Shown: positions 847 through 17,127 of the stretch, one piece after another
Layout: the number at the start of each line of letters is the position of its first letter
Position numbering within the stretch: position 1 is the first letter of the stretch
Source: Actinomycetota bacterium
GTDB taxonomy: Bacteria; Actinomycetota; Acidimicrobiia; Spongiisociales; UBA5794
Assembly: GCA_013151445.1 (NCBI GenBank)
Contig: JAADIG010000022.1
Span: 1,347 to 65,346 of the forward strand
Direction: 5' to 3'
Length of the DNA: 64,000 nucleotides
The notes under the pieces: model-generated
What the model saw: the letters and a program-made list of their open reading frames with translations, nothing else
Databases searched by the model: none
What the model was told of the DNA's origin: nothing
Program-made: the position numbers and the translations under genes

Positions 847-856
847 TGCAGGCACC

Positions 857-1825: not shown

Positions 1826-1864
1826 GGGGTCTCCTTGGTGGGCAGGTCGAGGTTCGAGAATGGG

Positions 1865-2632
1865 TTAGAGGGCATCAACGAGTTCCAGGGCAACCTCGAA
1901 AACCGCCGCATTCGCTGCATCGAGGCTGGCTTGCTCATCTGGGTCGAGCGGATCAAGAAAGCTGCGGCCGGCAAGGAGTTCGTCCCACACAGCGAGCATC
2001 GAAACTGCCGACATGCCGAAATGGTTGGCCACGGCGAGTGTCGTCGCGGTTTCCATGTCGACGGAGAGGTGGCCAGCATCGCTCCACTTCGTCACCATTT
2101 CTCCGCTTTGGGCGAAAATTGAATGCCAGGTGAGGTGGACACCGTTGTGGACACGAAAGCCCCGATTCTCCAGGGACCCGCGTGCGGTGGCACTCCGGAC
2201 CTTGTCGGCAGTCGTGGTCTCGGTTGCTCCGTAGACCCGTGCGATTCCTTCTTCGCAGGCCACGACATCGGGCACGACGATGTCGCCGGGACGGAGGCCC
2301 CTCTGTAACCCGCCACAGGTCCCGATCTGGACCGCAAGACGTGTGCCGAGGCTGCCGAACAGATGGGCAACCTCTACCGCTCGAGGGGCTCCGTACGCAC
2401 AGGCGTACACAACCGGTCGGTCGTGCCAACGACCCAGGAACATGTCGGGGAATGTGAGCTCCCGGACGTCTTCGAGCTCGCTGAGCCGCCACTGCGTACG
2501 CTGCTCGCGCCACCATGAGCCCTCGCTGATGATGGCTACCGGGATGTCGTCGTCGGCGATCCCCAGCGCCCGTTGCCATTCGCCGGGGGTGAGGTCCATG
2601 ATCGAGCGAGCACCCGAGCCGGTACGAGTCAT
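1865..2632 (-). CDS. PNP_UDP_1 family nucleoside phosphorylase / MTA-type nucleosidase-like protein
   Basis: 255-aa ORF with TCGGL and VDMETA motifs of the purine/uridine phosphorylase - MTA/SAH nucleosidase fold. Stop-start overlap with the upstream hydrolase gene. Confidence 0.65.
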   Translation of the reverse strand: MTRTGSGARSIMDLTPGEWQRALGIADDDIPVAIISEGSWWREQRTQWRLSELEDVRELTFPDMFLGRWHDRPVVYACAYGAPRAVEVAHLFGSLGTRLAVQIGTCGGLQRGLRPGDIVVPDVVACEEGIARVYGATETTTADKVRSATARGSLENRGFRVHNGVHLTWHSIFAQSGEMVTKWSDAGHLSVDMETATTLAVANHFGMSAVSMLAVWDELLAGRSFLDPLDPDEQASLDAANAAVFEVALELVDAL

Positions 2633-3747
2633 CGAGCCGACTCCTCAAGCTTGCGGAAAAAGTCTCGGAAGATGGCATCCCGGTCGATGTCGTGTGCTTC
2701 GCGCATGAGTCGTTCTGTACTGAGCCGCGGCGTCCAGCGAAGATCATCATCAAGCGTCGGCGTAGGTACCAGGGATGTCGGAACCCACGACGGCTCTAGC
2801 AGCCAGGCAATCGTGATCATGTCCCACATGACCCACGTCCGTCCAAAATGATCGGGGATGGCCCGTTGTTCGTGGAGCGGGTTGTTGGTGTAGAGCTCAT
2901 GCAGGAAGTCTCCGGCCGGTCCGCGGCCACGTACCCAGCGTTCGATTTCCGGGAGCGAAACGCGTAGCTGAGCTCCGATGTAGTAACCAGGGAAATAGAC
3001 CAACGGCACGCCGCTCTCGAAAAGAATTCGCGCTGCCGCCACGTCCTGGACCAGGTTCAACGAGTCGGCGTTGGAACGCGGTGACCATGTCGGGTATCCC
3101 GACGTCCACAGCACAACAATCCGATCGATGATGGCGGGCTCCAAGACGATTGCTGACGCCACGTTGGTCACGCATCCTATGGCGACGACGTAGAGAGGAT
3201 CATCCGCCGGTTCGAGTGCGAGCTCGATGAGCCTTCTGACGGCAGGGCTGTCGACGGGTTCGTTTGAAGATGCCATGTATCTCGGTGCACCACGAAAGAC
3301 GAGTCCCTCCGGATCGGCACCGACGTGCCCGTAGACGCGGAGGATTTCGTCGTAACTTCGTTCCATACCTTCTGGGGGGAGTACAAACTCGACGTCTTGT
3401 ACGTCGCGCCCCGCCTCGGCAAGCCGCGCCGCCCAACCCGTGAATGCGTCGATCGTTGCGTTCTCAGGCTCTGTGGTGTCCTGGGATTTGAGGCGTTGCG
3501 CCGCGGCGAGCAAATCGGCCCGGTGGTGTGCAAACGAATACGGTTCGGCAAGGACTGCCTGAATGTTCAGACGACCGGGGGACTGCAGCGCCCAGACCAG
3601 GGCGAACTGGTCGTCGATTTCGTTCGCCGCGTCCGTATCGATGACGACACGTACTGGACCGGTAGGCGGTTCCAGAAGAGCCGAACGGCGCTCTGAGGAA
3701 ATCGACGGGGATGCAGATCGATCGTTCACGAGGGACCCTCGAACCAT
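2629..3747 (-). CDS. inosine-uridine preferring nucleoside hydrolase (IUNH) family protein
   Basis: VVIDTDAANEIDDQFAL matches the DXDXXXDD nucleoside hydrolase fingerprint. Start is ambiguous: GTG at 3756 or ATG at 3747. Overlaps the aldolase stop. Confidence 0.8.
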   Translation of the reverse strand: MVRGSLVNDRSASPSISSERRSALLEPPTGPVRVVIDTDAANEIDDQFALVWALQSPGRLNIQAVLAEPYSFAHHRADLLAAAQRLKSQDTTEPENATIDAFTGWAARLAEAGRDVQDVEFVLPPEGMERSYDEILRVYGHVGADPEGLVFRGAPRYMASSNEPVDSPAVRRLIELALEPADDPLYVVAIGCVTNVASAIVLEPAIIDRIVVLWTSGYPTWSPRSNADSLNLVQDVAAARILFESGVPLVYFPGYYIGAQLRVSLPEIERWVRGRGPAGDFLHELYTNNPLHEQRAIPDHFGRTWVMWDMITIAWLLEPSWVPTSLVPTPTLDDDLRWTPRLSTERLMREAHDIDRDAIFRDFFRKLEESAR

Positions 3748-4664
3748 GTAGTCCACGGTGTTGCATGCGCCGCGGCGATGTCCGTGAGGTCCTGCAATCG
3801 CTGTTTAGCCTCGGCTGTGGCGGCGATCCGGTCGGCAGTGTCGGTGGCGACAAGATCCTGCCAGATCGCCCTTCCTGCGACGTAGCCGGATGCCCCGGCG
3901 TCGCACGCAATTGTGAGCTGTCGGCTGAATGTTGCCAGGTCTGCACCGCCCGATAACAGGGTCCACGGACAGGGACTTGCGGCGGTCAGCTCGGCGCACG
4001 CGTCGTGCCATTCGGATTCGTTGTCGTTGTCCCGGTTCGACGGGAATTCAAGCTTGAGGATATCGACGCCCAGGTCGCCGATTCGGTGTGCGGTCTCGAT
4101 GACGACCTTTCTGCGATCGTTCTGCTTTGTAAGCGGGACCAGGGGCTCGGCGAACAGGGGGAGTTCGTGGCGTTCACACGCATCAACGAGGCTCGACACA
4201 AATTCATGAGCCCCATTTGTCGACGAGAACGGGTCGTACACGAAGGACACTTTGACACCCGTTGCTCCGGATCGAGCCGCTCGTGCCACATCCCAGTCCG
4301 CAAAGAGGCGGGGCGGCCTGTCGGGTGAGGCATAGTCACCGTCTTCGAGTCCTATCAAGAGGCCGGTTGTTCCCGCAAGGGCGTCTTGCTCCACGATCGG
4401 CGCCAGTCCGAGGACAGGATCGATAAGGATGCCCGATGCGGGTTGGGAGACCGTCGAAACGAGGTGGAGTTTGAGAGCGATGAGCTCGGCGTCCGTCACT
4501 GTCTCGGGTTTATCCGGCCGAGCAACCATGGTCATGGCGGCAATATGATCGACCGCAAGTATTGCGAACACTTGCTCCGGGGTAGAGAGGGCTTGGAGGG
4601 CCCGCCGTTTCCCGAGAGAGAGCGTACCGTCGAGCCTCGATGTGGGATTGTCAATTGTGGTCAT
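3726..4664 (-). CDS. class I aldolase of the DeoC/LacD family (tagatose-bisphosphate / sulfofructose-phosphate aldolase-like)
   Basis: Blocks FAILAVDH, ILIDPVLGL, VDILKLEFPSN, LLSGGAD and GYVAGRAIW align with LacD motifs (ISALAFDQ, ILLDPEYGL, VDVLKVEVPVN, YLSAGVS, GVLCGRATW). ATGA overlap with the ABC ATPase stop. Confidence 0.75.
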   Translation of the reverse strand: MTTIDNPTSRLDGTLSLGKRRALQALSTPEQVFAILAVDHIAAMTMVARPDKPETVTDAELIALKLHLVSTVSQPASGILIDPVLGLAPIVEQDALAGTTGLLIGLEDGDYASPDRPPRLFADWDVARAARSGATGVKVSFVYDPFSSTNGAHEFVSSLVDACERHELPLFAEPLVPLTKQNDRRKVVIETAHRIGDLGVDILKLEFPSNRDNDNESEWHDACAELTAASPCPWTLLSGGADLATFSRQLTIACDAGASGYVAGRAIWQDLVATDTADRIAATAEAKQRLQDLTDIAAAHATPWTTWFEGPS

Positions 4665-5764
4665 AGGACTGCCGATCCCTCGGCCAATGTTGCCTCTGCC
4701 GACCCCGTTGTCGCGGTGTCATCGTCGGCGACGATCGACACGTGACCACGTGGCAGGAGGAGCCGTACGGTATCCCCGTTGCGAGCCTGGAACGCTGCCG
4801 GGGCTTGGATCTGCCATGGCGTATCCCCAATCGTTACCGTCAGCTGTGTGTGGGACCCCATGTAGATGAGCGACGTAACCACTGCCGGTACGACGTTCTC
4901 CTGGTCAGTTTCCTCGTTCACCAACCGCACTTCCTCGGGCCGGACGGTGAGTACGGAGGGGCCGTCCTCGACGGTTTCGGAAGTCGATACGATCTCGATT
5001 GGGCCAACGTCGGTGTGAATCGTCGAGCCTCTGCGATGGCCGCGGAGAAAGTTTCCGTTCCGAAAGAATCGTGCAACACCGGTGGTGCGAGGTGTGCGAA
5101 AGAACTCGTCCGGAGCGCCCACCTGCTGGAGGACGCCGTCGAACATCAGGGCCACCCGGTCGGCCAACATCACGGCCTCCTCCTGGTCGTGGGTCACAAA
5201 GATCGCGGTGATCCCCATTTCCTTCTGGATTGAGCGGATCAAGTGGCGCATGGTGATCCGGAGATTGGCGTCAAGGTTCGCCAGGGGTTCGTCGAGCAAC
5301 AACACCTTGGGGCGGACGATGAGCGCTCTCGCCAGGGCGACCCGTTGCTGCTGGCCACCGGAGAGTTCGTGTGCCTTGCGGTCTTCGAGTCCTGGAAGGT
5401 CGACGAGTTCCAGAATCTCCTTGACCCGTTCTGCGGTCTCCTCGCGCGAGACCCTTGCCATTTTGAGCCCAAACCCGACGTTCTGAGCAACGTTCATGGT
5501 CGGGAACAGCAGATGTTTCTGGAAAACCATCACGGCACCCCGGCGTTCCGTAGGGGTGGAGAGCACTGACTCCCCATCAAACAGAATGTCGCCCGAGCTC
5601 GGCTCGATGAGTCCCGTAATCATCCGCAGTGTGGTTGTTTTTCCGCACCCCGAAGGGCCCAGGAAGGCAACCATTTCTCCCGATTCGATATCAAGGTTGA
5701 GATCGCGGACTGCGACGTGGTCGCCGAAACGGCGTGAGATATGACGGAGCGATACAGCGGTCAT
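4661..5764 (-). CDS. ABC transporter ATP-binding protein (PotA/MalK-like with C-terminal TOBE domain)
   Basis: Walker A GPSGCGKTT, signature LSGGQQQRVALARAL, Walker B LLLDEP, and a C-terminal TOBE-like beta domain. 4-nt overlaps on both sides. Confidence 0.9.
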   Translation of the reverse strand: MTAVSLRHISRRFGDHVAVRDLNLDIESGEMVAFLGPSGCGKTTTLRMITGLIEPSSGDILFDGESVLSTPTERRGAVMVFQKHLLFPTMNVAQNVGFGLKMARVSREETAERVKEILELVDLPGLEDRKAHELSGGQQQRVALARALIVRPKVLLLDEPLANLDANLRITMRHLIRSIQKEMGITAIFVTHDQEEAVMLADRVALMFDGVLQQVGAPDEFFRTPRTTGVARFFRNGNFLRGHRRGSTIHTDVGPIEIVSTSETVEDGPSVLTVRPEEVRLVNEETDQENVVPAVVTSLIYMGSHTQLTVTIGDTPWQIQAPAAFQARNGDTVRLLLPRGHVSIVADDDTATTGSAEATLAEGSAVL

Positions 5765-6597
5765 AGTTTGCCAAAGCCTCCCATTAGAGCCGAATCTCGA
5801 CTGAGCTGCCGAGATGTCAAAACCAGTACGACGATCGCGGGTGCGACAAACACAAGGCTGATCGCAGCCGCCGTGGAGTTATTTCCTCCGCTCAGGAAGG
5901 GGAAGAGCACGAGGGGGAGCGTCACGAAGGTACCTCCACCAATGAGGAGAGTCGTCACGTATTGACCCCACGAAATCAGGAATGTGAACATTGACGCGAC
6001 GAGCAGACCCGACGAAATGGCTGGCAGGGTGACGTAGCGAAATACCCGATACCGGTTTGCGCCGAGGGTACGGGCGGTCTCCTCAAGTGCGGTGCCATAG
6101 TTCGCAAAGACGCTTGCCATGACGAGCACGAAGTATGGAATTGCCGGGATCAGATGGACAAGAGCGACACCAAACAAGGTCTCCGTCAGACGTAGCCGGA
6201 TGAAGATCTGATGTATTCCCATGGTTGCGACCAGCGCAGGAACGATAATGGGCATCATCAGGAGCCATTCGACGGTGCTCTTGCCGCGGAACTCGTGTTG
6301 ACCCAACGCCCGCGAGGCTGGCAGTCCCACGACGATCGCCATGCCGGTCACGAGCAGTGCCAGTCTTGTGCTATTCCACAGGCCCTCGAGCACCCGCGAT
6401 GAATCACTGGCCGTGTACGACCACGCACGCAACCCCCACTCGGTGGGGAGGATGTTTGGAAAGTTCCAGCGGAACGCAAACGACCAGACAACCAGCGTGC
6501 TGATGGGAACCACGACAAACACCACGATGGAGGTGACTGCTGTCCAGCGCGCCCATCGCGGCACGAGGCCGGTTCGTTTCTCCGGTTCTGTCGTCAT
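5761..6597 (-). CDS. ABC transporter permease (PotC-like)
   Basis: 278-aa polytopic membrane protein with the binding-protein-dependent transport inner-membrane signature. Adjacent to the ATPase. Confidence 0.85.
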   Translation of the reverse strand: MTTEPEKRTGLVPRWARWTAVTSIVVFVVVPISTLVVWSFAFRWNFPNILPTEWGLRAWSYTASDSSRVLEGLWNSTRLALLVTGMAIVVGLPASRALGQHEFRGKSTVEWLLMMPIIVPALVATMGIHQIFIRLRLTETLFGVALVHLIPAIPYFVLVMASVFANYGTALEETARTLGANRYRVFRYVTLPAISSGLLVASMFTFLISWGQYVTTLLIGGGTFVTLPLVLFPFLSGGNNSTAAAISLVFVAPAIVVLVLTSRQLSRDSALMGGFGKL

Positions 6598-6598
6598 G

Positions 6599-7483
6599 TC
6601 ACTTCACCGCCGATCGGGCAAGGCGTCGATACGCGATCAGCAACAGTATCGCTACGACGGCGAGCACGATGCTGATTGCCATTGCTTGTGGACGCAGCGC
6701 GAGGTCGGGGTCTTGATATTCTCGGAACGCAACCACCGGGAGCGTCGACGGGAATCGGACCCCAAGAAGAAGAGGGATTTCGTAGTTGGCAAAGGTGAAA
6801 GCGAAGATGATGATCGACGTTGACATGACACCGGGCATGATGAGGGGCAAGAGGACGTGCCGGAATCGTTGCCGTGCGTTCGCCCCGAGGGTACGCGCCT
6901 GCTCCTCGTATTGGGGGCCGACGCTCTGCAGGATCGCGAGTATGACGAGTCCGACGAACGGGACTTCCTTCCATAGAAACGTCAGGATGATGGCAACGCC
7001 ACCCTTGTCGAATACGAGTGCGGGGAAGTCGGCGGGTGTGTCCATCAATCCGACTGCCGTTGCGATGCGGGCAATCAGCCCGGACTGGGTAATGAGCAAG
7101 ATGATGCCGCTGGCAGCGACGAGATGAGGTACGGGCAGTGGCACCTGGAACAGAAACGTGGTGATTTTTGATCCGGCGAATTTCTCACGCAGTACAAGTG
7201 TGAATGCGATCGCAAGCACGCTCGATAAGACGGTAGTAACAGCGGCGATGCGGAACGTGAGCCACAGGGAAATGAGAAAGTTACGGTCCGTGAGCACTGT
7301 GGTGTAGTTCGAGAATGTGAATTCGTTGAGGCCGATCGCGGGGAAGTACCCCAGACTCTGGCCGAGACCGACGAGGATTCCACCACCGAACAGCACAACC
7401 ACGAGTCCCAATGCGGGTGCCAGCATGAGTGGAATCTTGAGGCCGTTTCTGATTCGGCGTGCGGTCATCGGGGTACTGGTCAC
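6599..7483 (-). CDS. ABC transporter permease (PotB-like)
   Basis: 294-aa polytopic membrane protein. GTG start at 7483 is preceded by AAGGAGA at 6-nt spacing. Stop is adjacent to the next permease start. Confidence 0.85.
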   Translation of the reverse strand: MTSTPMTARRIRNGLKIPLMLAPALGLVVVLFGGGILVGLGQSLGYFPAIGLNEFTFSNYTTVLTDRNFLISLWLTFRIAAVTTVLSSVLAIAFTLVLREKFAGSKITTFLFQVPLPVPHLVAASGIILLITQSGLIARIATAVGLMDTPADFPALVFDKGGVAIILTFLWKEVPFVGLVILAILQSVGPQYEEQARTLGANARQRFRHVLLPLIMPGVMSTSIIIFAFTFANYEIPLLLGVRFPSTLPVVAFREYQDPDLALRPQAMAISIVLAVVAILLLIAYRRLARSAVK

Positions 7484-7579
7484 GGGCTGTCTCCTTTCGA
7501 AGGTGCTGGTTGGCTGGTTAGTTGGTGCTGGTGGGGGTATCTCCAGTCGGAGACACCCCCACCAGGTAGGTTGCGGGTT

Positions 7580-8938
7580 CTAGTTCTCGAGTACGTTCTT
7601 AATCCAACCGGCTTCCATTGCTGTCACCCAGTCGCCAGCTGGCTCCGGAAGGGCGTTCGCATTGAGGACTGCGGCCGGGAGTGTCGCTACACCGGTACCG
7701 TACGAGTCGAGTGTCGCCTGGTCCTCGGCTGGCCAGGTTGTCGGGTCGGTCGGGATCAACCAGCCCCACTGGTCAGGGTCGGCCATGATCAGCGAGAACT
7801 CCGGCGAGACCATGTAATTGGCCACGACCATCGCCCCAGCCGGGTTGGCGGAGTTGAACGGGATCGTCACGTAGTTGTTGTTCGACAGGGTTCCGGTGTC
7901 AAACACGAACGTACGAATCGTCTCGGGGTACGTTCCCTCAGCGATGTTGGATGACGCCCGCGAAGGGTTGTAACCCATGTTGAACTGGATCTCCTGGTTC
8001 GCCAAGAGGTCTGTCATCGCCGCAGCTTCAGGGTACGTCGATCCGCCGCGCCAGAGATCCGGCTCGAGGTCGTTCAGGTACGCCCACACGGTCGGTGCGT
8101 ACTTGTCGAACACTGCTTGATCGAACTCGCCAAGGAACTCATCGGGTCCTCCGGCTGCCCAATAGAAGAGCGTGCGCACGAATACGCTGCCGGTGAAGTC
8201 TGGAATAGCCGGATAGGTGAACTGTCCGGGATTCGCCTTCACCCAGTCACTAAGCGCCTCGAAGGTGGTTGGTGGCTCGGGCACGAATGCCGTGTTGTAT
8301 TCCATGACGAACTGTGCGTGGCCCCATGGCGACTCAAGCCCATCCACGGGTTCACCGAAGTCGTTGGCAATTGCCGGGTCATCCCAGGCCACATATTTGG
8401 CATTGGGAATCGACTCGGACCACGGTCCGTACAACAAGTCCGCAGACTTGAGTGTCCGGAAGTTCTCTCCGTTGATCCAGATGAGGTCGACAGACCCTCC
8501 CGAATCCACGCCTGCGGCGGCTTCATCGAGGACCTTGTTGACGACGTCGGCAGTGTCAGTGATCGGAACGCGGTTCAACGTAATGTTGTATCGCTCCTTC
8601 ATGACCTTGCCGATATCGTTGTCGACATTGGAGTTGATGGTGTCCGAGCCGCCCCACATGAACCAGTTCACTGTGGTTCCATCAGCAGCCGCAAGGACGT
8701 CCTCCCAGGTGCTGTATCCCGGCACGTCGACCGGGGTAGTTGGTGCGGGGGCCGCTGTCGTTGTCGTTGTCGCTGCAGGGGCCGCGGGGGCCGCTGTCGT
8801 TGTCGTTGTGGCTGCCGGTGCGGCCGGGGCCTTGGTTGTTGTGGCACTTTCGGTGCCACCGCCACAGGCAGCAACGATGAGGGCAAAGGCGAACAGGACC
8901 ACAAGGGTCTTCGTTCGGGAGTGCTTTCGTTGTATCAT
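7580..8938 (-). CDS. ABC transporter substrate-binding lipoprotein (family 1 extracellular solute-binding protein)
   Basis: Start refined to ATG at 8938 (MIQRKHSRTKTLVVLFAFALIVAACGG, lipobox LVAAC), preceded by AGGAGG. Mature protein begins with a Thr/Ala/Pro-rich linker followed by a ~400-aa periplasmic-binding fold. The upstream 84 codons of the listed ORF are rejected. Confidence 0.8.
   Translation of the reverse strand: MIQRKHSRTKTLVVLFAFALIVAACGGGTESATTTKAPAAPAATTTTTAAPAAPAATTTTTAAPAPTTPVDVPGYSTWEDVLAAADGTTVNWFMWGGSDTINSNVDNDIGKVMKERYNITLNRVPITDTADVVNKVLDEAAAGVDSGGSVDLIWINGENFRTLKSADLLYGPWSESIPNAKYVAWDDPAIANDFGEPVDGLESPWGHAQFVMEYNTAFVPEPPTTFEALSDWVKANPGQFTYPAIPDFTGSVFVRTLFYWAAGGPDEFLGEFDQAVFDKYAPTVWAYLNDLEPDLWRGGSTYPEAAAMTDLLANQEIQFNMGYNPSRASSNIAEGTYPETIRTFVFDTGTLSNNNYVTIPFNSANPAGAMVVANYMVSPEFSLIMADPDQWGWLIPTDPTTWPAEDQATLDSYGTGVATLPAAVLNANALPEPAGDWVTAMEAGWIKNVLEN
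8747..8824 (-). repeat. 2 x 39-bp tandem direct repeat encoding the Thr/Ala/Pro-rich lipoprotein linker
   Basis: gggggccgctgtcgttgtcgttgtcgctgcagg and gggggccgctgtcgttgtcgttgtggctgccgg are adjacent on the plus strand. On the minus strand they translate to TTTTTAAPAAPAA twice. Confidence 0.7.
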
Positions 8939-9062
8939 TCGGTTCTCCTCCTTGTCACGGGGCTGGAGTAGTCCCAATCCCTTTGTGCTATCACTGCTTG
9001 GGTTGGGGCTATGTTGTTTCGGACGCAAGCTATTTCGGTGCTGCACACCGGAATGCTTCGAT

Positions 9063-10517
9063 TCATCGCAAGGACACCACCTCCAGTCGCTGCAGGTAGT
9101 TCTTGCGCGGGATGCGGTTGATCGTTTCCATGTTGAGCCAGGCGGCGATCTCGAGTAGCTCGTCGGTGAGGTCACCCTGTGCCACGGCATAGTGGTGTTC
9201 GTGGCCGCTCGTGATCAGGGTGTTGACGAGATCACCCAGTTCGATGGGTTCGCCGTTGAGCTCAAAAGCGGTAAACCAGCCACGAGTGCCGTCGAATCCT
9301 GTGACGGTCCGTTCCTCGATGCGGGCGCGCACCACGAGAAGTTTGCTGGCATTGCTCCCGACGTAAGCGATCGTTACATCCTGGGCCGCAAAGACGTGGT
9401 CGCCAGCGACACCAAATGTTTGTGGTGATTTCCTACCAAGCGTCGTATGGTCGACCCATCGGATCCCATCACTGTTGGCAAAATGTCGGGGCGTCACCCC
9501 GCAGTGCCACATCAATAGCGAACCGGTACTTACATCCAGGGCAGTCATGTCAAGCAGTGTTGATGACCCGGGTCGGTCGCTCAGTTCGTTCAGCAGTAGC
9601 ATCGAGAGGGCACCCGGGACGTCGCCCTCGCACGAGACGGCGAACCCGTCTTCGGATCCAAGCCAGCTGTACGCCATGCATGGTGCGATCCCCATGATCT
9701 CTTGGAATTTTGGCCAACACTGAACAGCGAGTGCGGCATGGCCGTCGTCCTCAGCCAGGCCCTTCAGCGCCAAATAGAGCCGTGCACCTTGTTCCATGAA
9801 CGTGTCGCTCGTCAGGACCTCGCTGGCCGCAGCCGTCAGATCTGCCACAACGGCTCGAGCGGCGGACTCGTCGACGGCGTGTGCACGATCGACGATCTCC
9901 GTGAAGTCATGGGCGACAACTCGTGTCCCGAGACGTTCCCGGACGGCCTCGGCATCGAACTCCATGTTGTAGAAGCCGGGGGAGTTGCCACCGAGCCATC
10001 CGACGGTGGCAGTCGACATTGCCTTGATTGCCTGGAGCGCCCGGACGGTGATGACAAACGGCAGTATGAAGTCGTCGTCATCAACGTGACCGAAGAACCA
10101 TTTGAACATCGGCCCATCCTGTCCCAGGTAGCGCTTGACAATGGATGCGTAGTGGTTCACAGCAACGAGGGAATGGATTTTGATCGGCCCGTCCCGATCG
10201 GGGTCCGGAGTTCCCCATATCCCGATACGGGGTGCGACCGCGCCAAGCGGTGGAAGTAGTTCGCCGGAGGCCACGCTGGCGCATTGGATCATGAGATAGT
10301 CAACCTCGGCTGCCCTCAGCTCATTTGCGGCCTTCTCAGCAAGGGCGACGTCGGTGACCGGGTAGGCGATGCTCACAAGGTCGAAGTCCATCTGTTCGGA
10401 AAGGACCCGCAGGCCGTCGATCGCACGGCCGTATTGGTTGTACTCCTCGGCGAAGTACGACGTGAATGCAACCCCCACATATCCGATTTTGAGGCGTTGG
10501 CGGTCGCGTTGTTTCAT
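9063..10517 (-). CDS. L-arabinose/L-fucose isomerase family protein (short FucI-like aldose-ketose isomerase)
   Basis: 484-aa ORF. CEGDVPGALSMLLLNEL...TLLDMTALD...MWHCG...EHHYAVAQGD blocks resemble the AraA/FucI metal-site blocks (EGDWKTAAL..FMEDYTYHF..HMLE). ATG at 10517 shares 1 nt with the dhaL stop. Confidence 0.55.
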   Translation of the reverse strand: MKQRDRQRLKIGYVGVAFTSYFAEEYNQYGRAIDGLRVLSEQMDFDLVSIAYPVTDVALAEKAANELRAAEVDYLMIQCASVASGELLPPLGAVAPRIGIWGTPDPDRDGPIKIHSLVAVNHYASIVKRYLGQDGPMFKWFFGHVDDDDFILPFVITVRALQAIKAMSTATVGWLGGNSPGFYNMEFDAEAVRERLGTRVVAHDFTEIVDRAHAVDESAARAVVADLTAAASEVLTSDTFMEQGARLYLALKGLAEDDGHAALAVQCWPKFQEIMGIAPCMAYSWLGSEDGFAVSCEGDVPGALSMLLLNELSDRPGSSTLLDMTALDVSTGSLLMWHCGVTPRHFANSDGIRWVDHTTLGRKSPQTFGVAGDHVFAAQDVTIAYVGSNASKLLVVRARIEERTVTGFDGTRGWFTAFELNGEPIELGDLVNTLITSGHEHHYAVAQGDLTDELLEIAAWLNMETINRIPRKNYLQRLEVVSLR

Positions 10518-11179
10518 CAGCGATCAGCCTCGGGTCTGCGGGCGGCCTCTGCCCACGACTCGAAGATCAGCGCGACACTGGTGGCTCCCGGATCTTGGAT
10601 GCCGACAGATTTATCGCCCGTATACCGGGCTCGGCCAACGGACGCCCGCATGCGGGTTGTGGCCGTTGCGCCGTCGCGGGCGGCCTGTGCCGTGAGCTGG
10701 AGCATTTCGTCGACCGAGACTCCCTGGTCAGCGGCCCGTCGCGATGCCACGACCGCCGGGATGAGTGCGTCGATCATGGTCTTGTCGCCAGCACTTGCTT
10801 TCCCTCGTTTTGTGACGACTGCGGTACCAATCGCAATGGCGTCTGCGAACTGTCGGACGTCGACGGCGTCGGTATCGCCGAGACTCGCTGCGGCGGCTGC
10901 GAAGAAGCTCCCGAAGAGCGCCCCCGCTGCTCCGCCCATATGGTCGAGGAACGAGTCGGCCGTCATAGCCAATACTGTTCCTGGGCTGGCGTCATCGTGG
11001 TGGGCAATCTGGCTGCGGGCATGGCCGAGGGCTGTGGCGACGTTCGCTCCGTGATCACCGTCGCCGGTGAGGGAGTCGAGATGAGAGAGCTCATCGGAGT
11101 GGGCGTCGATAGCGTCCGCAGCCGCAACGATGAATCGACACCAGTCGGCACCAGTAAGCACCTCGGTGGAGACGTTCAC
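10517..11179 (-). CDS. dhaL: dihydroxyacetone kinase family, ADP-binding subunit DhaL (Dak2 domain)
   Basis: GDGDHG nucleotide/Mg-binding motif and the helical Dak2 fold. GTGA overlap with dhaK. Confidence 0.85.
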   Translation of the reverse strand: MNVSTEVLTGADWCRFIVAAADAIDAHSDELSHLDSLTGDGDHGANVATALGHARSQIAHHDDASPGTVLAMTADSFLDHMGGAAGALFGSFFAAAAASLGDTDAVDVRQFADAIAIGTAVVTKRGKASAGDKTMIDALIPAVVASRRAADQGVSVDEMLQLTAQAARDGATATTRMRASVGRARYTGDKSVGIQDPGATSVALIFESWAEAARRPEADR

Positions 11180-12210
11180 GATGCCTCCCCGTCCGATGCC
11201 GGGCCGGCGAACTGGATACCAGCGCCGTGGGCTGGTGCGTCATAGAGCCGTTTCATCTCGGCATCGACGCGACAGATCGCCACGGTGAAACCCGCGGTGT
11301 CCTGGGTAGTCGCGTACGGTCCCAGCCACGCCCGATGGACCTGTATGTTGCGCTCCGCAAGGATTTGGGCTGCGCGTCGATACAGAATCGATAATTCCAT
11401 GACGGTGAGTGAGCCGGCGTTGTTGATGAGCAGGCACACCTCATCTCCGGATCGACAGCCGAGGTCGTCCACCACCTGGGGAACCATGATGTCCATGATG
11501 GAGTCGGCGGTGGTCACCGAGTTGGTGTTCCCATGGCTCTCTCCGTGCACCCCGACGCCGATGACAACTTCTCCCTCGGGGATGTCGGCGAGTGGCAGGC
11601 CGGTCACTGGGTGGGTACAACTGCGCAGCGTTGCAGATAGGGATCTGGTCGCGTCGCGAACGCGTTCCGCCATAGCTTTGCTGGCCAGAAGCGAAGCTCC
11701 CTCTTCGGCGTAGGCACCGACGATCTTCCACACGAAGAACAAACCGGCGGCCCCTCTCCTGTCGGGTTCCTGGCCCTTGGGTGCCGAGGCGATATCGTCG
11801 TAGAGGATGACCATCTCGACATCGTCGCGACCTGCCTGCCGAACGCGCTCAAGAGCCATCTCGGCGTTGAGAACGTCGCCAGCATGGTTTGACACGCACA
11901 GCAGGACGCCGGCGCCGCGGTCGCCGGCCGTGATGCCTGCCACCAGTCGCGATGGACCCGGGGCAGTGAAAACAGGACCGGGGACGTTCACGTCGAAGAG
12001 CCCGGGACCGACCCAGCCGATCATGGCGGGTTCGTGCCCAGATCCGTTGCCGATAACAAGACCGACCTTCCCCGGCCGTTTCGATGTTGCGCGAACGACG
12101 AGGCCGTCGTGGAGCCGGATGATGTCCTCGTGGGCGGCGCAGTATCCGTCGAGCATGTCGGCAACGATGGTTTGCGGATCGTTGATAAACCTCGTGGTTC
12201 GTACGCTCAT
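11176..12210 (-). CDS. dhaK: dihydroxyacetone kinase family, substrate-binding subunit DhaK (Dak1 domain)
   Basis: GNGSGHEP motif with the substrate-binding His, and typical Dak1 length (344 aa). ATGA overlap with the upstream isomerase. Confidence 0.85.
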   Translation of the reverse strand: MSVRTTRFINDPQTIVADMLDGYCAAHEDIIRLHDGLVVRATSKRPGKVGLVIGNGSGHEPAMIGWVGPGLFDVNVPGPVFTAPGPSRLVAGITAGDRGAGVLLCVSNHAGDVLNAEMALERVRQAGRDDVEMVILYDDIASAPKGQEPDRRGAAGLFFVWKIVGAYAEEGASLLASKAMAERVRDATRSLSATLRSCTHPVTGLPLADIPEGEVVIGVGVHGESHGNTNSVTTADSIMDIMVPQVVDDLGCRSGDEVCLLINNAGSLTVMELSILYRRAAQILAERNIQVHRAWLGPYATTQDTAGFTVAICRVDAEMKRLYDAPAHGAGIQFAGPASDGEAS

Positions 12211-13127
12211 GCCGGGAGCTCCGGGGTTCTGGCGAGGTGGTCACGGACAAATCGGGCTGCTGCTGATGCTTCCGCCATGGCATCGTCCACCAGCGGGCGC
12301 CATGCGTGCGTGGACCGGCCGGTTTCGACCTTGGGATTGGGGAACGTCTCGACGACGAGCCAACCCGAGTAGGAGATGTCGTCGAGAGCATCGGCGATGC
12401 CATCCCAGTCGAGGTGACCGTTCCCGGGCATGGCGCGGGTGTTGGCGGCGCACTGGAAATGAGCCAGGCGCTCACCGGCGGTCCGGATCGCGGCACCGAG
12501 GTCGGCTTCTTCCATATTCATGTGGAAGGTGTCGAGTTCGATCTTGACCGAGGGATGATCCACGAGGTCTATGAAGGCGTTCGCCTGATCGACCGTGTTC
12601 AGCATGAACGTCTCGAAGCGGTTGAGCAGTTCGACACAGAGGTCGACCCCGACTGCGTCGGCGGTGGCGGCCACCTCTCGGAGGGACTCCGCCGATCGCT
12701 GGCGGTAAGGCTCGAGGTCGGTCTCGGACGGAAAGGAGAACCACGGGGCGTAGGTCACGCCACCGAGGATGGGGCTCCCAAGCTGTGCGGCGATCTCAAG
12801 GCAGCGCTTCAAATACTCGATTCCCGAGCGTCGTATGCCGGGATCGGGGCTTGAGACGTCGGTGCGTTCGGTGAGTCCGGTGCTGCACGCCACGGAGAGA
12901 TCATGCATCCTCAGGCCGGCTCGCACAGCGTCATAGTCAGCAACGTTGTCGGACATGAGAGAAATCTCGACGCCGTCGTAGCCGGTTGCGCGGACACGGT
13001 CGAAGTACGCCGCCTGGTCGTCTGCCCACCGGTCCATGAAATAGAAGATCTCGATGCCGACAGTTCGGTGCGTACCGGCGTGCAAAGACGCCGAGTCCGG
13101 GGCAGGCGGATTCGAGATGGTGCTCAC
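12207..13127 (-). CDS. sugar phosphate isomerase/epimerase (xylose isomerase-like TIM barrel, EryC-like)
   Basis: TIM-barrel blocks GIEIFYF, GYDGVEISL, ELLNRFETFMLNT and WLVVETF. Start refined to GTG at 13127, which overlaps the SorC regulator stop (GTGA). The listed ORF extends to 13265 through the regulator 3' end. Confidence 0.7.
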   Translation of the reverse strand: MSTISNPPAPDSASLHAGTHRTVGIEIFYFMDRWADDQAAYFDRVRATGYDGVEISLMSDNVADYDAVRAGLRMHDLSVACSTGLTERTDVSSPDPGIRRSGIEYLKRCLEIAAQLGSPILGGVTYAPWFSFPSETDLEPYRQRSAESLREVAATADAVGVDLCVELLNRFETFMLNTVDQANAFIDLVDHPSVKIELDTFHMNMEEADLGAAIRTAGERLAHFQCAANTRAMPGNGHLDWDGIADALDDISYSGWLVVETFPNPKVETGRSTHAWRPLVDDAMAEASAAARFVRDHLARTPELPA

Positions 13128-14164
13128 TGTTGTCCAGCGCGATCGTGCTCTAGTAGGGCGGCGGCGGTTGTGTCGTCGGTGATGAGGACGTTGAAATAAC
13201 CGCCGCGCAGACCACCAATGATTGGCTCTACCTTTTGGGTGCCACCAGCGACCAGCACACTCCAAGGTACGCTGCGGAGGTCGTCAAGGTCGATACCGAT
13301 GAGGTTCGAATCGGTGCGCGATTGCACTCGTTCACCGTCGATGTCGTAGTAGTAACCGAGGGCATCACCAACGGCCCCGCGAGAACGGAGATCGGCGAGG
13401 TCGTCTGCATTAATGATTCCGGATTGGTAGAGGATTGCGCTGGTATCGACGGGTCCAACGCTTTGCATCATGATGTCCGACTCGCGCGCCCGGTTGAGCG
13501 CGTCGGCGACGGAGGGCTCCTTGGCGAGCAGCATGCCGAGATCCGGGTTTGTTACGAATCCCGGTGCCTGGAGGATCTCACGAGTTCCGCCCGCAAGTTC
13601 GGCCATCTTTGAGGTCACGTCGAGTGTCGCCCAGTCCTGGGTGTAGACGGTACCGAGCACTTCGATGAACGTGCATTCGATCGGCTGATCCAAACGGAAC
13701 GTTTCAGGCATGTGGGAAAGGGTTCGTCCGATTCCGAGGCCGACCCGCATGTTCGGCTGGAGGTGGTGGGTGAGCCACGTGGCAGCTCCCTCGGCGAGGG
13801 TCGATGCGGCCACATTCTCGGTGTTGTCTGAGCTCACGACCACCGCCCCGCGGAGGCCGTACGCCGCGGCGAGGTCGGACTCTAGATCGATGTGCCACCC
13901 GACGGGCACCTTGACCCGTATCTCCAGGATTCCAAGTGTGCGTGCCATACCGAGAACTCGGTTGATTTTGATGCGAGAGTATCCGAGTTGATCCCCGATC
14001 TCGCCTTGGCTCAACCCGTCGCGGTAGTAGAGCATCGCGGCCTGTACGCATAGGCGATAGTCGGACTCAGATATCCCCGGAGGGGAGGTTGTCCACTCCA
14101 TCTGAACATTTGTACGCAAGGAGTTCATCTGTTCAACCCTATTGGTCGCGCGGCCACACGTCAA
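13124..14164 (-). CDS. SorC/DeoR-family transcriptional regulator (N-terminal HTH plus sugar-phosphate-binding domain; EryD/CggR-like)
   Basis: HTH DYRLCVQAAMLYYRDGLSQGEIGDQLGYSRIKINRVL followed by a SorC sugar-binding domain. Start is TTG at 14164 or ATG at 14128/14101. Confidence 0.75.
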   Translation of the reverse strand: MTCGRATNRVEQMNSLRTNVQMEWTTSPPGISESDYRLCVQAAMLYYRDGLSQGEIGDQLGYSRIKINRVLGMARTLGILEIRVKVPVGWHIDLESDLAAAYGLRGAVVVSSDNTENVAASTLAEGAATWLTHHLQPNMRVGLGIGRTLSHMPETFRLDQPIECTFIEVLGTVYTQDWATLDVTSKMAELAGGTREILQAPGFVTNPDLGMLLAKEPSVADALNRARESDIMMQSVGPVDTSAILYQSGIINADDLADLRSRGAVGDALGYYYDIDGERVQSRTDSNLIGIDLDDLRSVPWSVLVAGGTQKVEPIIGGLRGGYFNVLITDDTTAAALLEHDRAGQQ

Positions 14165-14223
14165 GTGATGGGTTCGTAATGGGAGGCCCAGGCCCGGGAG
14201 TGATGCCCGGGGGAGCGGGCACT

Positions 14224-15933
14224 TCAGTGCTCGCCGAGCATCCTTACATCTGGGGCGCCGAGCCGGGCGGCGTCGGCAGTGAGATCGTCGGGCATGGTTT
14301 GTGATTCACGCTCGGCGGCGACCCTGGCTTCATAGTGCTCGAGCTCACGTTTGACGATGGTGGTATCCCAACCGAGCACCTCCGCCATGATCGCGGCAAC
14401 AACGGGGGCCGCTTCAACACCACGATCTGGCGACTCGATCGAAAGTCGTGTGCGCCGTGCCAACACATCATCGAGGTGGAGTGCCCCTTCGTGCTCGACC
14501 GCAAACTTGATTTCGGCACCCAGGTAGGCGCCCGAAGGTACTGGTTCGGCGAGCTTCGAGTCCGTTCTGAACAGATCGAGCACGTCGGTTACTTCATCCC
14601 CGTAACGTCGCAGAAGGCGATCGATCTGGTGCTCCGGGATGCCGTATTCCGATGCGAGGTGTGAGCTCTTGGCGGCAGTATCCGCATAGTTTGTCGCACC
14701 GACTAGCTGCAGTTCCGCCGTGAGGGTGCCCGGTATTGACACCCCAGCTTCTTCGAAGGCCCGATCGACTGTGTCCTCTGCCATCAGCCGATACGTCGTG
14801 AATTTGCCGCCGGCGATCGTCGTTAGTCCAGGTGCGGGGTGTGTGATGCTGTGCTCGCGAGATGCCTTGGCTGTCGACTTTGCCGTTCCGGCGACGAGCG
14901 GGCGCAGCCCGGCGAACACACCAACGATGTCGTCCTCGGTGAGCGGAACATCGACGACCTTGTTCGCCTGCTCGAGCACATAGAGCACGTCCGACCTGCT
15001 CGCGGCGGGATGATCCAGGTCGAGGTCCCACTTGGTATCTGTTGTCCCGATGAGCCAGAAGTCGCCGTGGGGTATGAGGAAAAGGACACTGGTCTTGGTT
15101 TTGGTGATGAAACCGATCGAGGATTTGATCCGATCCTTGGGCACGACGATATGAATGCCCTTGGATGCGGTGACGTCCGTTTCTTCATCACCGACGAGGC
15201 ACTCGACCGAATCGGTCCACACGCCGGTTGCGTTGATGATGACGGACGCCGTTGCATTAACGGCACGGCCCGTTTCGAGGCATGTCGCGGTGATACCGTG
15301 CACACGGCCGTCCTTGCGCGTGAATCCGGTGACACGGGTACTCGTGAGGATGTGGGCGCCTTCCCGGGCCGCGGTTCGGGCGACTGCGGTCACATACCGG
15401 GCATCGTCTGTGCCAGCGTCGTAGTAGAGGATGCCGCCGACGAAGGCCGACCTCTTGATTCCGGGGAAGGCCTCGATCAGCTTCTTATGGCTGAGGTGAC
15501 GATGCATCGGCATGGTGCTCTTGCCTAGTTTCGCAAGCCCGTCGTACAACATGATGCCCGCACCGACGTAGGCACGTTCCCACACACGATGTTGCAGCGG
15601 GTACACAAACGGTACCGGCCAGACGAGATGAGGGGCTATCTTTGACACCAGGAGTTCCCGTTCCCGGAGCGCCTCTCGTACGAGGCCGAAATCCATTTGC
15701 TCAAGGTAGCGCAGGCCTCCATGGATGAGCTTGGATGATCGACTGGATGTACCCGAGGCGAGGTCACGCTGCTCGACAACCGCAACGGTGAGGCCGCGCG
15801 AGGCCGCATCAAGTGCACAGCCGATTCCGGTGATGCCCCCACCAACCACGATCACGTCGAAGGTTCCGCCATCCACGGTATCGAGGGTTCTGCGTCGATA
15901 CTCGGGTCCAAGAGATGTCTTTGGATCAATCAC
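14224..15933 (-). CDS. glpD: FAD-dependent glycerol-3-phosphate dehydrogenase family protein (GlpD/EryB-like)
   Basis: DVIVVGGGITGIGCALDAASRGLTVAVVEQRD dinucleotide-binding motif, and a C-terminal alpha-glycerophosphate oxidase-type domain. Start refined to GTG at 15933, which has AAGGGAG upstream and leaves 25 aa before the GGG motif. The 124-codon N-terminal extension in the track, to 16305, is rejected because it runs through the queG start region. Confidence 0.75.
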   Translation of the reverse strand: MIDPKTSLGPEYRRRTLDTVDGGTFDVIVVGGGITGIGCALDAASRGLTVAVVEQRDLASGTSSRSSKLIHGGLRYLEQMDFGLVREALRERELLVSKIAPHLVWPVPFVYPLQHRVWERAYVGAGIMLYDGLAKLGKSTMPMHRHLSHKKLIEAFPGIKRSAFVGGILYYDAGTDDARYVTAVARTAAREGAHILTSTRVTGFTRKDGRVHGITATCLETGRAVNATASVIINATGVWTDSVECLVGDEETDVTASKGIHIVVPKDRIKSSIGFITKTKTSVLFLIPHGDFWLIGTTDTKWDLDLDHPAASRSDVLYVLEQANKVVDVPLTEDDIVGVFAGLRPLVAGTAKSTAKASREHSITHPAPGLTTIAGGKFTTYRLMAEDTVDRAFEEAGVSIPGTLTAELQLVGATNYADTAAKSSHLASEYGIPEHQIDRLLRRYGDEVTDVLDLFRTDSKLAEPVPSGAYLGAEIKFAVEHEGALHLDDVLARRTRLSIESPDRGVEAAPVVAAIMAEVLGWDTTIVKRELEHYEARVAAERESQTMPDDLTADAARLGAPDVRMLGEH

Positions 15934-16030
15934 CCAGCCAGGATACTCCCTTGCGAATTCGCCGAATCCGAGGGAAGGGTGGTTACGTCGACCGCTACGC
16001 TTATCCGCTATGGAAGGTGGAGGCAGCCGA

Positions 16031-17122: not shown

Positions 17123-17127
17123 CTCCG

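Follow-up and report, generated by a model that had tools for sequence, protein, structure and literature searches.

Gene content and organization of the locus

The window analysed here is a stretch of 64,000 nucleotides (positions 1,347 to 65,346 of contig JAADIG010000022.1, assembly GCA_013151445.1) from an Actinomycetota bacterium of the class Acidimicrobiia. Its left end carries the gene cluster that is the subject of this study, which encodes a predicted sugar isomerase, a two-subunit kinase of the dihydroxyacetone kinase (DAK) family, an aldolase, two putative hydrolases and an ATP-binding cassette (ABC) importer. On the open reading frame (ORF) map, an uninterrupted run of 15 co-directional genes occupies 16 kb of the minus strand between the left window edge and position 15933, and all coordinates of the cluster given below refer to this strand. 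The initial annotation of the locus had correctly counted fifteen co-directional genes over 16 kb; the span of 1865-15933 that it assigned to them holds 13, with the genes for E1 alpha and E1 beta lying outside it. The remaining genes of the window have housekeeping functions (ROK kinase, fab genes, dinB, moxR, mraW and the division cluster), and the gene array is therefore chromosomal and not an island.

Gene starts were adjusted using homologues and the sequences of the junctions. Seven junctions consist of 4-nt overlaps of the ATGA or GTGA type (SorC/epimerase, epimerase/DhaK, DhaK/DhaL, permease 2/ATPase, ATPase/aldolase, aldolase/nucleoside hydrolase-like and nucleoside hydrolase-like/purine nucleoside phosphorylase-like), in agreement with the earlier description of packing by stop/start overlaps, and DhaL and the isomerase overlap by 1 nt. 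Of these, the SorC/epimerase junction is a GTGA overlap, and the epimerase/DhaK and permease 2/ATPase junctions are ATGA overlaps. The only larger gaps separate GlpD from SorC (about 95 nt), the isomerase from the substrate-binding protein (SBP; 124 nt), the SBP from permease 1 (96 nt) and the purine nucleoside phosphorylase-like gene from E1 alpha (39 nt). A scan for consensus promoters and terminators gave nothing above shuffled expectation, a result that is uninformative for a high-GC actinobacterium, and a riboswitch search for the ligand gave no relevant Rfam match in positions 1-17500 of the window (E <= 1) or in six related loci.

Using hidden Markov models (HMMs), matches above the Pfam gathering score were obtained for PF02733, PF02734, PF01791, PF01156, PF01048, PF04198, PF01261 and the ABC families. 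The enzyme families named in the initial annotation all hold by this assignment, the 484-aa isomerase candidate being placed by fold and metal ligands and not by Pfam.

Predicted catabolic enzymes

The 484-aa protein encoded at 9063-10517 is 99% identical to a protein from a hydrothermal-vent metagenome and is predicted, based on its modelled structure and metal ligands, to be a metal-dependent aldose-ketose isomerase of the AraA/FucI fold. No Pfam family was matched at E <= 0.01, PF02952-type models included, and the precomputed Pfam field is blank for all 120 listed homologues. The sole meaningful curated match is the NCBIfam model for SftI (NF048012; 148 bits, E 2.7e-43, cut-off 700). SftI/SqvD is a sulfoquinovose isomerase of the FucI family (PMC9594981), and the score indicates a homologue of it, not an orthologue. 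An AlphaFold2 (AF2) model made from 54 homologues (pLDDT 91.7, pTM 0.92) was compared with the PDB by Foldseek and matched 33 L-arabinose isomerase chains over the full length (TM 0.72-0.79), followed by FucI/D-arabinose isomerase (TM 0.73-0.75), with E-values down to 1e-24 and no matches to other folds. Alignment to E. coli AraA with hhalign pairs E297, D323 and H338 with E306, E333 and H350, at a probability of 25% and with the mapping leaning also on the fold match; H441/H442 (EHHYAV) correspond to H449/H450 of E. coli AraA (AHHTV). The four metal-ligand positions (E306, E333, H350 and H450 in E. coli AraA) are invariant in the alignment of 54 sequences. Because fold and active site match despite the Pfam miss, the model supports the earlier placement of this protein inside the AraA/FucI superfamily (fold TM 0.78/0.73, AraA metal ligands kept), in a clade without Pfam coverage. 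A search of 1.84 billion representative sequences puts the size of the family at 169 members (E <= 1e-30).

Directly upstream lie the genes for the two subunits of the DAK-family kinase, the substrate-binding DhaK (11176-12210; PF02733, 319 bits) and the nucleotide-binding DhaL (10517-11179; PF02734, 153 bits). DhaK scores 191 bits against PDB entry 3CT4, and its motifs GSGH59EP, GD112VLN and GVH222GE pair with the His/Asp and hemiaminal-His motifs of 3CT4 and 1UOE. It stays below the cut-off of the equivalog model TIGR02363 (290 bits, cut-off 406), while DhaL exceeds that of TIGR02365 (164 bits, cut-off 138) and keeps the Mg-nucleotide motif DxxxGDGDHG (here DSLTGDGDHG), found in 75 of 77 orthologues. 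The residues presumably have the roles of their counterparts in E. coli DhaK and DhaL. A gene for DhaM or another component of the phosphotransferase system (PTS) was found neither in the window cluster nor at any related locus; ATP is therefore the likely phosphoryl donor, and the kinase is presumably ATP-dependent.

The kinase genes are preceded by a gene for a ketose 3-epimerase-like TIM barrel (12207-13127; PF01261, 144 bits), which the initial annotation had omitted from its gene list. It reaches 221 bits against the D-psicose 3-epimerase model NF051856, below the cut-off of 300, and by these scores would be a family relative of the type acting on free ketoses. Membership in the free-ketose 3-epimerase group argues for a free ketose between isomerase and kinase.

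The gene at 3726-4664 encodes a putative class I (Schiff-base) ketose-1-phosphate aldolase of the YihT/LacD/DUF2090 group. It clearly belongs to PF01791 (83.5 bits, gathering score 23.8), is borderline for PRK12858 (183.4 bits, cut-off 184) and is far from the LacD equivalog TIGR01232 (51 bits, cut-off 432). Among solved structures, 8TNF (DUF2090) scores 101 bits, YihT 90-93 bits and LacD at most 78 bits. YihT has Lys193 as its Schiff-base residue and a phosphate-binding site with serine and Arg253 (PMC8006165). Its lysine pairs with K204 of the aldolase (LKLEFP), and Ser226-Ser227 and Arg253 pair with the LSGG motif and R265 (GRAIW). With the catalytic residues kept, the DeoC/LacD placement proposed earlier is sound. 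As the YihT residues for both Schiff-base formation (Lys) and C1-phosphate binding (Arg) are conserved, the aldolase should need a 1-phosphorylated ketose. The sulfonate pocket of YihT was considered as a test for sulfosugars and dropped, as Arg253 is conserved but binds phosphate too and so does not discriminate.

Two further enzymes are presumed to act on ribosides. The first (2629-3729) is a nucleoside hydrolase (NH)-fold protein of an atypical subfamily and a presumed (ribo)furanosidase. It matches PF01156 with 68.5 bits (gathering score 34.2) and PF07632 with 26.3 bits; similarity to RihB/YeiK is restricted to the C-terminal half and amounts to only 44 bits, and all Rih equivalog models give less than 45 bits, with cut-offs of at least 380. 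The second (1865-2632) is a purine nucleoside phosphorylase (PNP)/UDP-fold protein with 85.5 bits to PF01048 (gathering score 25.1) and 52 bits to DeoD-type PNPs. It keeps the Met-Glu pair and the Asp that we take to be ribose-binding and catalytic, respectively. The position of E. coli PNP Arg87, which we take to bind phosphate, is occupied by Q in the window protein and by Q, M or I in all 19 readable orthologues (one of the 20 could not be read), and the protein is possibly a ribosyl hydrolase instead of a phosphorylase. Signal peptides were found in neither the NH-like nor the PNP-like protein, which makes cleavage of an imported ribosyl (furanosyl) conjugate reasonable.

Importer, hairpin and regulator

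The importer consists of a lipoprotein SBP of the YnjB/PotD type (7580-8938), a PotB-like permease 1 (6599-7483; PF00528), a PotC-like permease 2 (5761-6597; PF00528) and a PotA-type ATPase with a TOBE_2 domain (4661-5764; PF00005 and PF08402). The SBP is 100% identical to a protein of a metagenome-assembled genome (MAG) labelled "Actinobacteria bacterium". It has no Pfam match, scores 456 bits against the YnjB-type model PRK11622 (NF008633; cut-off 203) and carries the lipobox IVAAC followed by a Thr/Pro/Ala linker. Its AF2 model (pLDDT 75) reaches TM values of about 0.5 with generic folds (PotD/PotF, YdcS, dinucleotide-binding proteins) and gives no clue to the ligand; a sequence search against the PDB returned nothing.

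Just 3' of the SBP stop codon, within the 96-nt gap to permease 1, lies a perfect, GC-rich 17-bp hairpin without a T-run (7528-7565), identified by its folding energy (dG -40.3 kcal/mol, z -5.8, none of 200 shuffles as stable). Hairpins occur at the equivalent SBP junction in the related loci L001 and L081, with partly different stems, and in Parasedimentitalea marina (L084), where a U-run follows. The element is probably an intra-operon mRNA-stabilising or attenuating structure, and is likely to set the ratio of SBP to membrane components.

The regulator (13124-14164, likely start ATG at 14128) is a predicted sugar-phosphate-sensing repressor of the SorC/DeoR (Bacillus) type (PF04198, 206 bits). 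It scores 172 bits against the NCBIfam model for Bacillus DeoR and 151 bits against that for LsrR, both under the cut-off. SorC is found in 8-9 related loci, and other lineages have GntR instead.

Conservation of the gene set in related loci

A scan of one genome per species yielded 80 loci with an isomerase 53-83% identical to that of the window, all of them in MAGs and many in sponge symbionts. They belong to Acidimicrobiia, Chloroflexota (Anaerolineae, Caldilineaceae, Phototrophicaceae), Spongiisociaceae, Nanopelagicales, Gammaproteobacteria (Cellvibrionaceae) and Trueperaceae. Neighbours were scored by tblastn and all-against-all clustering of ORFs at the 55 loci where the isomerase is flanked by 8 kb or more on each side, partners being counted within 10 kb. 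The isomerase is adjoined by DhaK at 54 and by DhaL at 52 of these 55 loci. The PotA-type ATPase (46/55), the SBP (43/55), the aldolase (41/55) and the NH-like gene (40/55) follow, with DhaK, DhaL, aldolase and NH-like gene occurring jointly at 37 of 55; among the 40 loci with both kinase subunits and the aldolase, 37 have the NH-like gene as well. Permease 1 (28/55), the epimerase (24/55, in addition to the Rhodobacterales clusters described below), the PNP-like gene (14/55) and SorC (6/55) are less frequent. Across loci, gain and loss of the NH-like gene go hand in hand with those of the aldolase.

An arrangement that recurs in 80 loci from several phyla is far beyond chance. The gene-neighbourhood check thus finds that isomerase, DhaK/DhaL, aldolase, importer and NH-like gene recur together across phyla, and from this synteny they appear to form one functional unit. 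Among Acidimicrobiia and Chloroflexota that live as sponge symbionts or in marine, vent and groundwater settings, the cluster is common, and a dissolved metabolite of ecological relevance is therefore its probable substrate.

The same gene set was detected by a plasmid protein search in three cultured marine Rhodobacterales, with isomerases 28-30% identical to that of the window: P. marina W43 (L084, NZ_CP033221.1, about 98.9-114.4 kb), Paracoccus seriniphilus DSM 14827 (L085, NZ_CP067130.1, about 118.4-135.4 kb) and Marinovum algicola DG898 (L088, CP010863.1, about 25-42 kb). The genes run in one direction in the order major facilitator superfamily (MFS) transporter, thiolase-like, DUF35, AMP-binding CoA ligase, epimerase, DhaL, DhaK, "tagatose-bisphosphate aldolase", aldehyde dehydrogenase (ALDH; missing from the P. 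marina cluster), GntR, isomerase, PotA-type ABC system and nucleoside hydrolase, the latter with the motif DTDTANEIDD. In RefSeq the isomerase is labelled only 'hypothetical protein'. As these plasmid carriers are cultured, they offer ready-made experimental systems in which the question is directly testable.

Additional partners in related loci and flanking genes

A thiolase-like gene (43/55) and a DUF35 gene (40/55), where present, lie directly upstream of DhaK or of epimerase-DhaK (e.g. L035:4014-5228, L043:6957-7493, L084:2491-4040, L088:3160-4703). The clade of the window lacks this pair and has the PNP-like gene and E1 alpha/beta instead. Compared with archaeal acetoacetyl-CoA thiolases, the nucleophilic Cys is replaced by Gly (EGGGA[ST]G) and the catalytic His by Ala or Ser in all 56 MAG copies, and the three Rhodobacterales copies all show the same Cys to Gly and His to Ala changes. 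This loss of Cys and His suggests that the thiolase-like protein is repurposed or inactive. Its frequent companions are either a family III CoA-transferase or an AMP-binding CoA ligase together with an ALDH. The idea that the pair replaces the aldolase, with a complementary distribution, was rejected, both being present at 32 of 55 loci.

Other recurrent neighbours among the 55 loci are MFS transporters (28), family III CoA-transferases (18), zinc-dependent alcohol dehydrogenases (Zn-ADH; 17), sulfatases (16), ALDH (5) and aldo-keto reductases (AKR; 5). Enzymes handling aldehydes or alcohols (ALDH, Zn-ADH, AKR) occur at 27 of 55 loci, which fits an aldehyde co-product. In sponge Acidimicrobiia the Zn-ADH lies between the NH-like gene and the permeases (L083:13503-14534 and 16 other loci). 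It is of the polyol/sugar-dehydrogenase-like kind, resembling IolM (232 bits), idonate 5-dehydrogenase and Tdh more than aldehyde reductases, and may feed a polyol into the ketose pool.

The sulfatase is situated just upstream of the cluster in sponge Acidimicrobiia and Spongiisociaceae (L083:2093-4321, L018, L019, L021 and L038 among them), often by a gene of the MR_MLE enolase superfamily. Independently, M. algicola has an arylsulfatase just upstream (L088:463-1824), and a gene resembling 2-keto-3-deoxygluconate (KDG) kinase adjoins it. The association hints at a sulfated precursor, or at mere adjacency to sulfated-glycan catabolism.

More distant FucI-like relatives, approximately 25% identical to the isomerase, were found in two other clusters. 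On plasmid pDEIPE01 of Deinococcus peraridilitoris (L091:5895-15322), the FucI-like gene is accompanied by a CUT1-type ABC system, a PfkB kinase, a LacD-like aldolase 34% identical to the window aldolase, a glycoside hydrolase of family 31 (GH31) and an AEC exporter. A plasmid of Ca. Chlorohelix (L092:2434-10350) combines an SftI-like isomerase (343 bits) with an ALDH of the succinate-semialdehyde type, sulfite reductase and siroheme genes and a pyrophosphate-dependent phosphofructokinase. Judged by their gene content, both look like uncharacterised or hybrid clusters of the sulfoglycolysis type.

The outermost genes of the 15-gene run appear to be neighbours of the cluster. The GlpD-like gene (14224-15933; PF01266 and PF16901) encodes a predicted FAD glycerol-3-phosphate dehydrogenase with 351 bits to NF008899 (cut-off 360). 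The initial annotation had included it in the span of the operon, but no GlpD homologue lies within 10 kb of the isomerase at any of the 80 related loci (0/55 with full flanks), and it is probably outside the conserved unit. Its longest ORF (14224-16305, 693 aa) overlaps a divergent ORF on the plus strand for a QueG-like 4Fe-4S/HEAT protein (15725-17122). Homology begins near residue 135-148, which places the true start at about 15933-15849, and a short divergent promoter region probably serves both genes.

At the other end, E1 alpha (857-1825; PF00676, 251 bits) is of the pyruvate dehydrogenase type dependent on thiamine pyrophosphate and stays below the cut-off of TIGR03182 (325 bits, cut-off 394), and E1 beta (1-846; PRK09212, 314 bits for the translation from ATG 846) is cut by the window edge. 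The E1 genes follow the PNP-like gene only in the closest relatives (L002, L004, L006, L081 and L082), and no E2 or E3 gene was found near them; their products may act on the aldehyde formed by the pathway, or the genes may be mere neighbours. Core membership of GlpD and of E1 alpha/beta was rejected by synteny (0 and 3-4 of 80 loci, respectively).

Proposed pathway and alternative explanations

Considering gene order, translational coupling, family and fold membership, catalytic residues and co-occurrence together, we infer the reactions, their order, the ATP dependence and the substrate as follows. With a probability only a little above even (about 0.55), the genes form a single operon for the catabolism of an imported glycoside or sugar, which would be broken down by an isomerase-DhaKL-aldolase route to dihydroxyacetone phosphate (DHAP) and an aldehyde. 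As pathway logic, this route has good support. The PotABC-type importer with its YnjB-type SBP would take in the compound, and the cytoplasmic NH-fold hydrolase, aided or replaced by the PNP-fold protein, would free an aldose, most likely of the ribofuranose type. The AraA/FucI-fold metalloenzyme would convert the open-chain aldose to a free 2-ketose, which the 3-epimerase could optionally invert at C3. DhaK/DhaL would hold the keto group as a hemiaminal and phosphorylate the adjacent C1 hydroxymethyl group, and the YihT/LacD-type class I aldolase would cleave the resulting ketose-1-phosphate to DHAP and an aldehyde, whose disposal would differ by lineage. The SorC repressor would respond to a phosphosugar intermediate. 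Since the gene set recurs in several phyla and no description of it was found in the literature searched, the operon probably marks an undescribed breakdown route for a compound that is probably a ribose-like sugar.

As to the substrate class, our best guess is a pentose or an omega-substituted (5-deoxy-5-X) ribose derived from a riboside. It is favoured because the two hydrolases are of ribosyl type, because pentuloses and above all 5-deoxy-pentuloses are largely acyclic, which suits the covalent keto-binding of DhaK, and because terminally deoxy sugars (L-fucose, sulfoquinovose) are the substrates of characterised FucI-family enzymes. Taken further, the cluster could be a widespread route for external 5'-modified ribosides such as methylthioadenosine, 5'-deoxyadenosine or arsenosugar-type compounds, in which a divergent NH-fold ribosidase, the FucI-fold isomerase (forming an acyclic 5-deoxy-pentulose), 1-phosphorylation by the DAK kinase and the YihT-like aldolase would give DHAP and a substituted acetaldehyde, which in most lineages would be processed onward by an ALDH, a CoA ligase or CoA-transferase and a repurposed Cys-less thiolase/DUF35 module. 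This extension is speculative, and we would put it at about one chance in five; if true, it would be the first case of a DAK enzyme acting on a pentulose.

Several observations weigh against the proposed route or its substrate. We know of no precedent for DAK kinases on pentuloses or hexuloses. About ten Chloroflexota loci have neither the aldolase nor the NH-like gene within 10 kb. The thiolase-like/DUF35 pair (43/55) with its CoA-transferase or CoA-ligase partners is left unexplained by the scheme, as is the sulfatase association by the favoured substrate class. The Rhodobacterales aldolase is only 25% identical to that of the window and belongs to another subfamily nearer LacD, which we read from the sequences as a displacement within the family with the predicted chemistry kept. 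The SBP is of neither the nucleoside (Bmp) nor the sugar (CUT1/CUT2) type, and a PotD/YnjB-type SBP and a CoA-dependent module are not accounted for by a ribose-like substrate.

The hydrolases raise further points of this kind. The NH-like fingerprint DTDAANEIDD (DxDxxxxxDD) is two residues longer than DxDxxxDD, the canonical Ca2+/ribose fingerprint of nucleoside hydrolases (PMC8910321); the variant DTD[AT]xNE[IV]DD is present in 48 of 50 NH-like orthologues and also in P. marina. The protein also touches the model of the Sde182 NH-like domain, and that of Sde_0182 is inactive on nucleosides (PMC8910321) and thought to bind furanoses. The PNP-like protein, for its part, lacks the phosphate-binding Arg. 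The earlier proposal of two nucleoside-cleaving enzymes therefore stands as to family membership, and cleavage is plausible; the atypical fingerprint, the 44 bits to RihB and the missing Arg speak against taking it further.

Other explanations fit part of the same evidence. DhaKL might be a triose kinase for downstream dihydroxyacetone or D-glyceraldehyde, with the aldolase substrate phosphorylated elsewhere or with C-C cleavage performed by the thiolase-like/DUF35 pair. In its catalytic motifs DhaK cannot be told apart from true dihydroxyacetone kinases, DhaL passes the TIGR02365 cut-off and GlpD adjoins the cluster in the window; in most relatives the thiolase-like/DUF35 pair stands directly upstream of DhaK, its Cys lost as in Ltp2-type retro-aldolases. 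We nevertheless consider this order of steps unlikely. The adjacency of DhaK, DhaL and isomerase is near-invariant, with the 1-nt overlap of DhaL and isomerase, and argues for consecutive steps; a further sugar kinase is missing from the window cluster and from most relatives, the C1-phosphate site of the aldolase is kept, GlpD is not conserved and the clade of the window manages without the thiolase-like pair. Far less probable still is a mosaic of unrelated adjoining modules for nucleoside salvage, glycerol/dihydroxyacetone metabolism, polyamine-type import and a tagatose-type aldolase, given that translational coupling crosses the borders of these modules, that the combination is kept across phyla despite shuffled gene order and that aldolase and NH-like gene co-vary in presence and absence. 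In its favour it can be said that each part has a plausible housekeeping role, that GlpD and E1 alpha/beta are lineage-specific neighbours and that the promoter/terminator scan gave nothing above chance.

A variant of sulfoglycolysis, or a route for another anionic sugar, would use the SftI/SqvD-like isomerase, DhaKL in place of YihV/SqiK and the YihT-like aldolase to give DHAP and a sulfonated aldehyde, which would be oxidised or reduced and exported (MFS transporters are present in many relatives). SftI is indeed the only curated family matched by the isomerase, yet with a score of 148 against a cut-off of 700; likewise, YihT is the closest characterised relative of the aldolase with a solved structure, and Lys193 and Arg253 are kept, but Arg253 binds phosphate too and is non-discriminating. 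Distant FucI-like relatives do occur in isomerase-kinase-aldolase clusters, that of Chlorohelix (343 bits to SftI) by sulfite reductase; the Deinococcus GH31, however, scores best as an alpha-xylosidase and not as YihQ. Hybrid sulfo-Embden-Meyerhof-Parnas (sulfo-EMP) clusters mixing SqvD with other parts are documented (PMC9594981), and MFS, ALDH and ADH partners are found among the relatives. Since no GH31/GH188 sulfoquinovosidase, YihU-type reductase or TauE exporter was found at any locus, the associated enzymes are sulfatases acting on sulfate esters and not sulfonate enzymes, and the NH-like hydrolase would stay unexplained, we regard a sulfosugar as a rather improbable substrate, behind a triose kinase in likelihood and ahead of a mosaic. 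The isomerase-DhaKL-aldolase route from a ribose-like compound thus remains the preferred interpretation.

Comparison with known systems

Should the model hold, the dihydroxyacetone kinase family would be extended to a larger ketose, and a function would be found for the Pfam-uncovered isomerase clade, the atypical NH subfamily, the YnjB-type SBPs and the Cys-less thiolase/DUF35 pair of the relatives. In full-text literature searches, whose coverage leaves out most papers of subscription journals, no description of an isomerase-DhaKL-aldolase combination was found, and within that coverage the earlier impression that this combination had not been characterised is borne out.

Individual elements are shared with several known systems. 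In the DHAP shunt for 5-deoxyribose and methylthioribose, the kinase is MtnK/DrdK, the isomerase MtnA/DrdI and the class II aldolase Ald2/DrdA. It starts from a ribose-derived sugar that a nucleosidase sets free and yields products of the same kind (DHAP and a C2 aldehyde), and the window likewise has PNP/MTAN-fold and NH-fold proteins. In contrast to the shunt, the predicted order in the window is isomerase, then kinase, with a free-ketose intermediate, and the ABC importer points to an external nutrient and not to internal salvage. None of the three families that define the shunt is among the Pfam/NCBIfam matches of the 15 genes; the cluster may operate in a similar way without belonging to the shunt.

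DAK-family erythrulose kinases are also found in bacteria. In erythrulose pathways the kinase product is passed on to isomerases and erythrose-4-phosphate instead of an aldolase, and no AraA/FucI-fold isomerase is a partner. The Yarrowia erythrulose kinase EYK1, a DAK homologue, phosphorylates a ketose larger than dihydroxyacetone (PMC5992420); in these erythrulose pathways a Dak1/Dak2 kinase acts on a small free ketose in a sugar/polyol pathway, as is proposed for the window cluster. With the tagatose-6-phosphate pathway, the cluster has in common the PF01791 TIM barrel with Schiff-base Lys seen in LacD, while neither a tagatose-6-phosphate kinase nor a galactose-6-phosphate isomerase is present in the window cluster.

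Sulfo-EMP and hybrid clusters (YihS or SqvD/SftI, YihV or SqiK, YihT or SqiA) follow the same three-step logic, and for two of the three core enzymes the characterised proteins nearest to those of the window, SftI/SqvD and YihT, come from such clusters (PMC9594981, PMC8006165). The initial annotation had claimed that every step is carried out by a non-orthologous family and that a class I aldolase stands in for a class II enzyme. With regard to sulfoglycolysis this has to be corrected, as the YihT aldolase, too, is of class I (PMC9594981, PMC8006165) and, with a DUF2090 protein, is the closest relative of the window enzyme among solved structures, and the isomerase matches SftI/SqvD. The scores nevertheless fall far short of orthologue level, the kinase belongs to another family, the position that GH31 has in sulfo-EMP is held by an NH-fold hydrolase, and sulfoquinovosidase, sulfolactaldehyde (SLA) reductase and sulfonate exporter are absent from the window cluster.

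The FucI-FucK-FucA pathway of E. coli for L-fucose/D-arabinose has the same logic, from aldose to 2-ketose, to ketose-1-phosphate and to DHAP and an aldehyde. FucI shares the FucI/AraA fold and metal site with the isomerase, yet only about 14% identity. E. coli uses an FGGY kinase and a class II aldolase for the steps assigned here to DhaK/DhaL and a class I enzyme, and beyond these steps the window cluster encodes a 3-epimerase, an NH-like hydrolase and an importer of the PotD type. The pathway logic is therefore known from the fucose, rhamnose, sulfo-EMP and DHAP-shunt systems, and it is the combination of an isomerase from an uncovered clade with a DAK kinase and a YihT/LacD-type aldolase that is new. 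If the model holds, the cluster would represent a fourth enzymatic solution to the isomerase-kinase-aldolase scheme, after those of the fucose, rhamnose and sulfo-EMP pathways.

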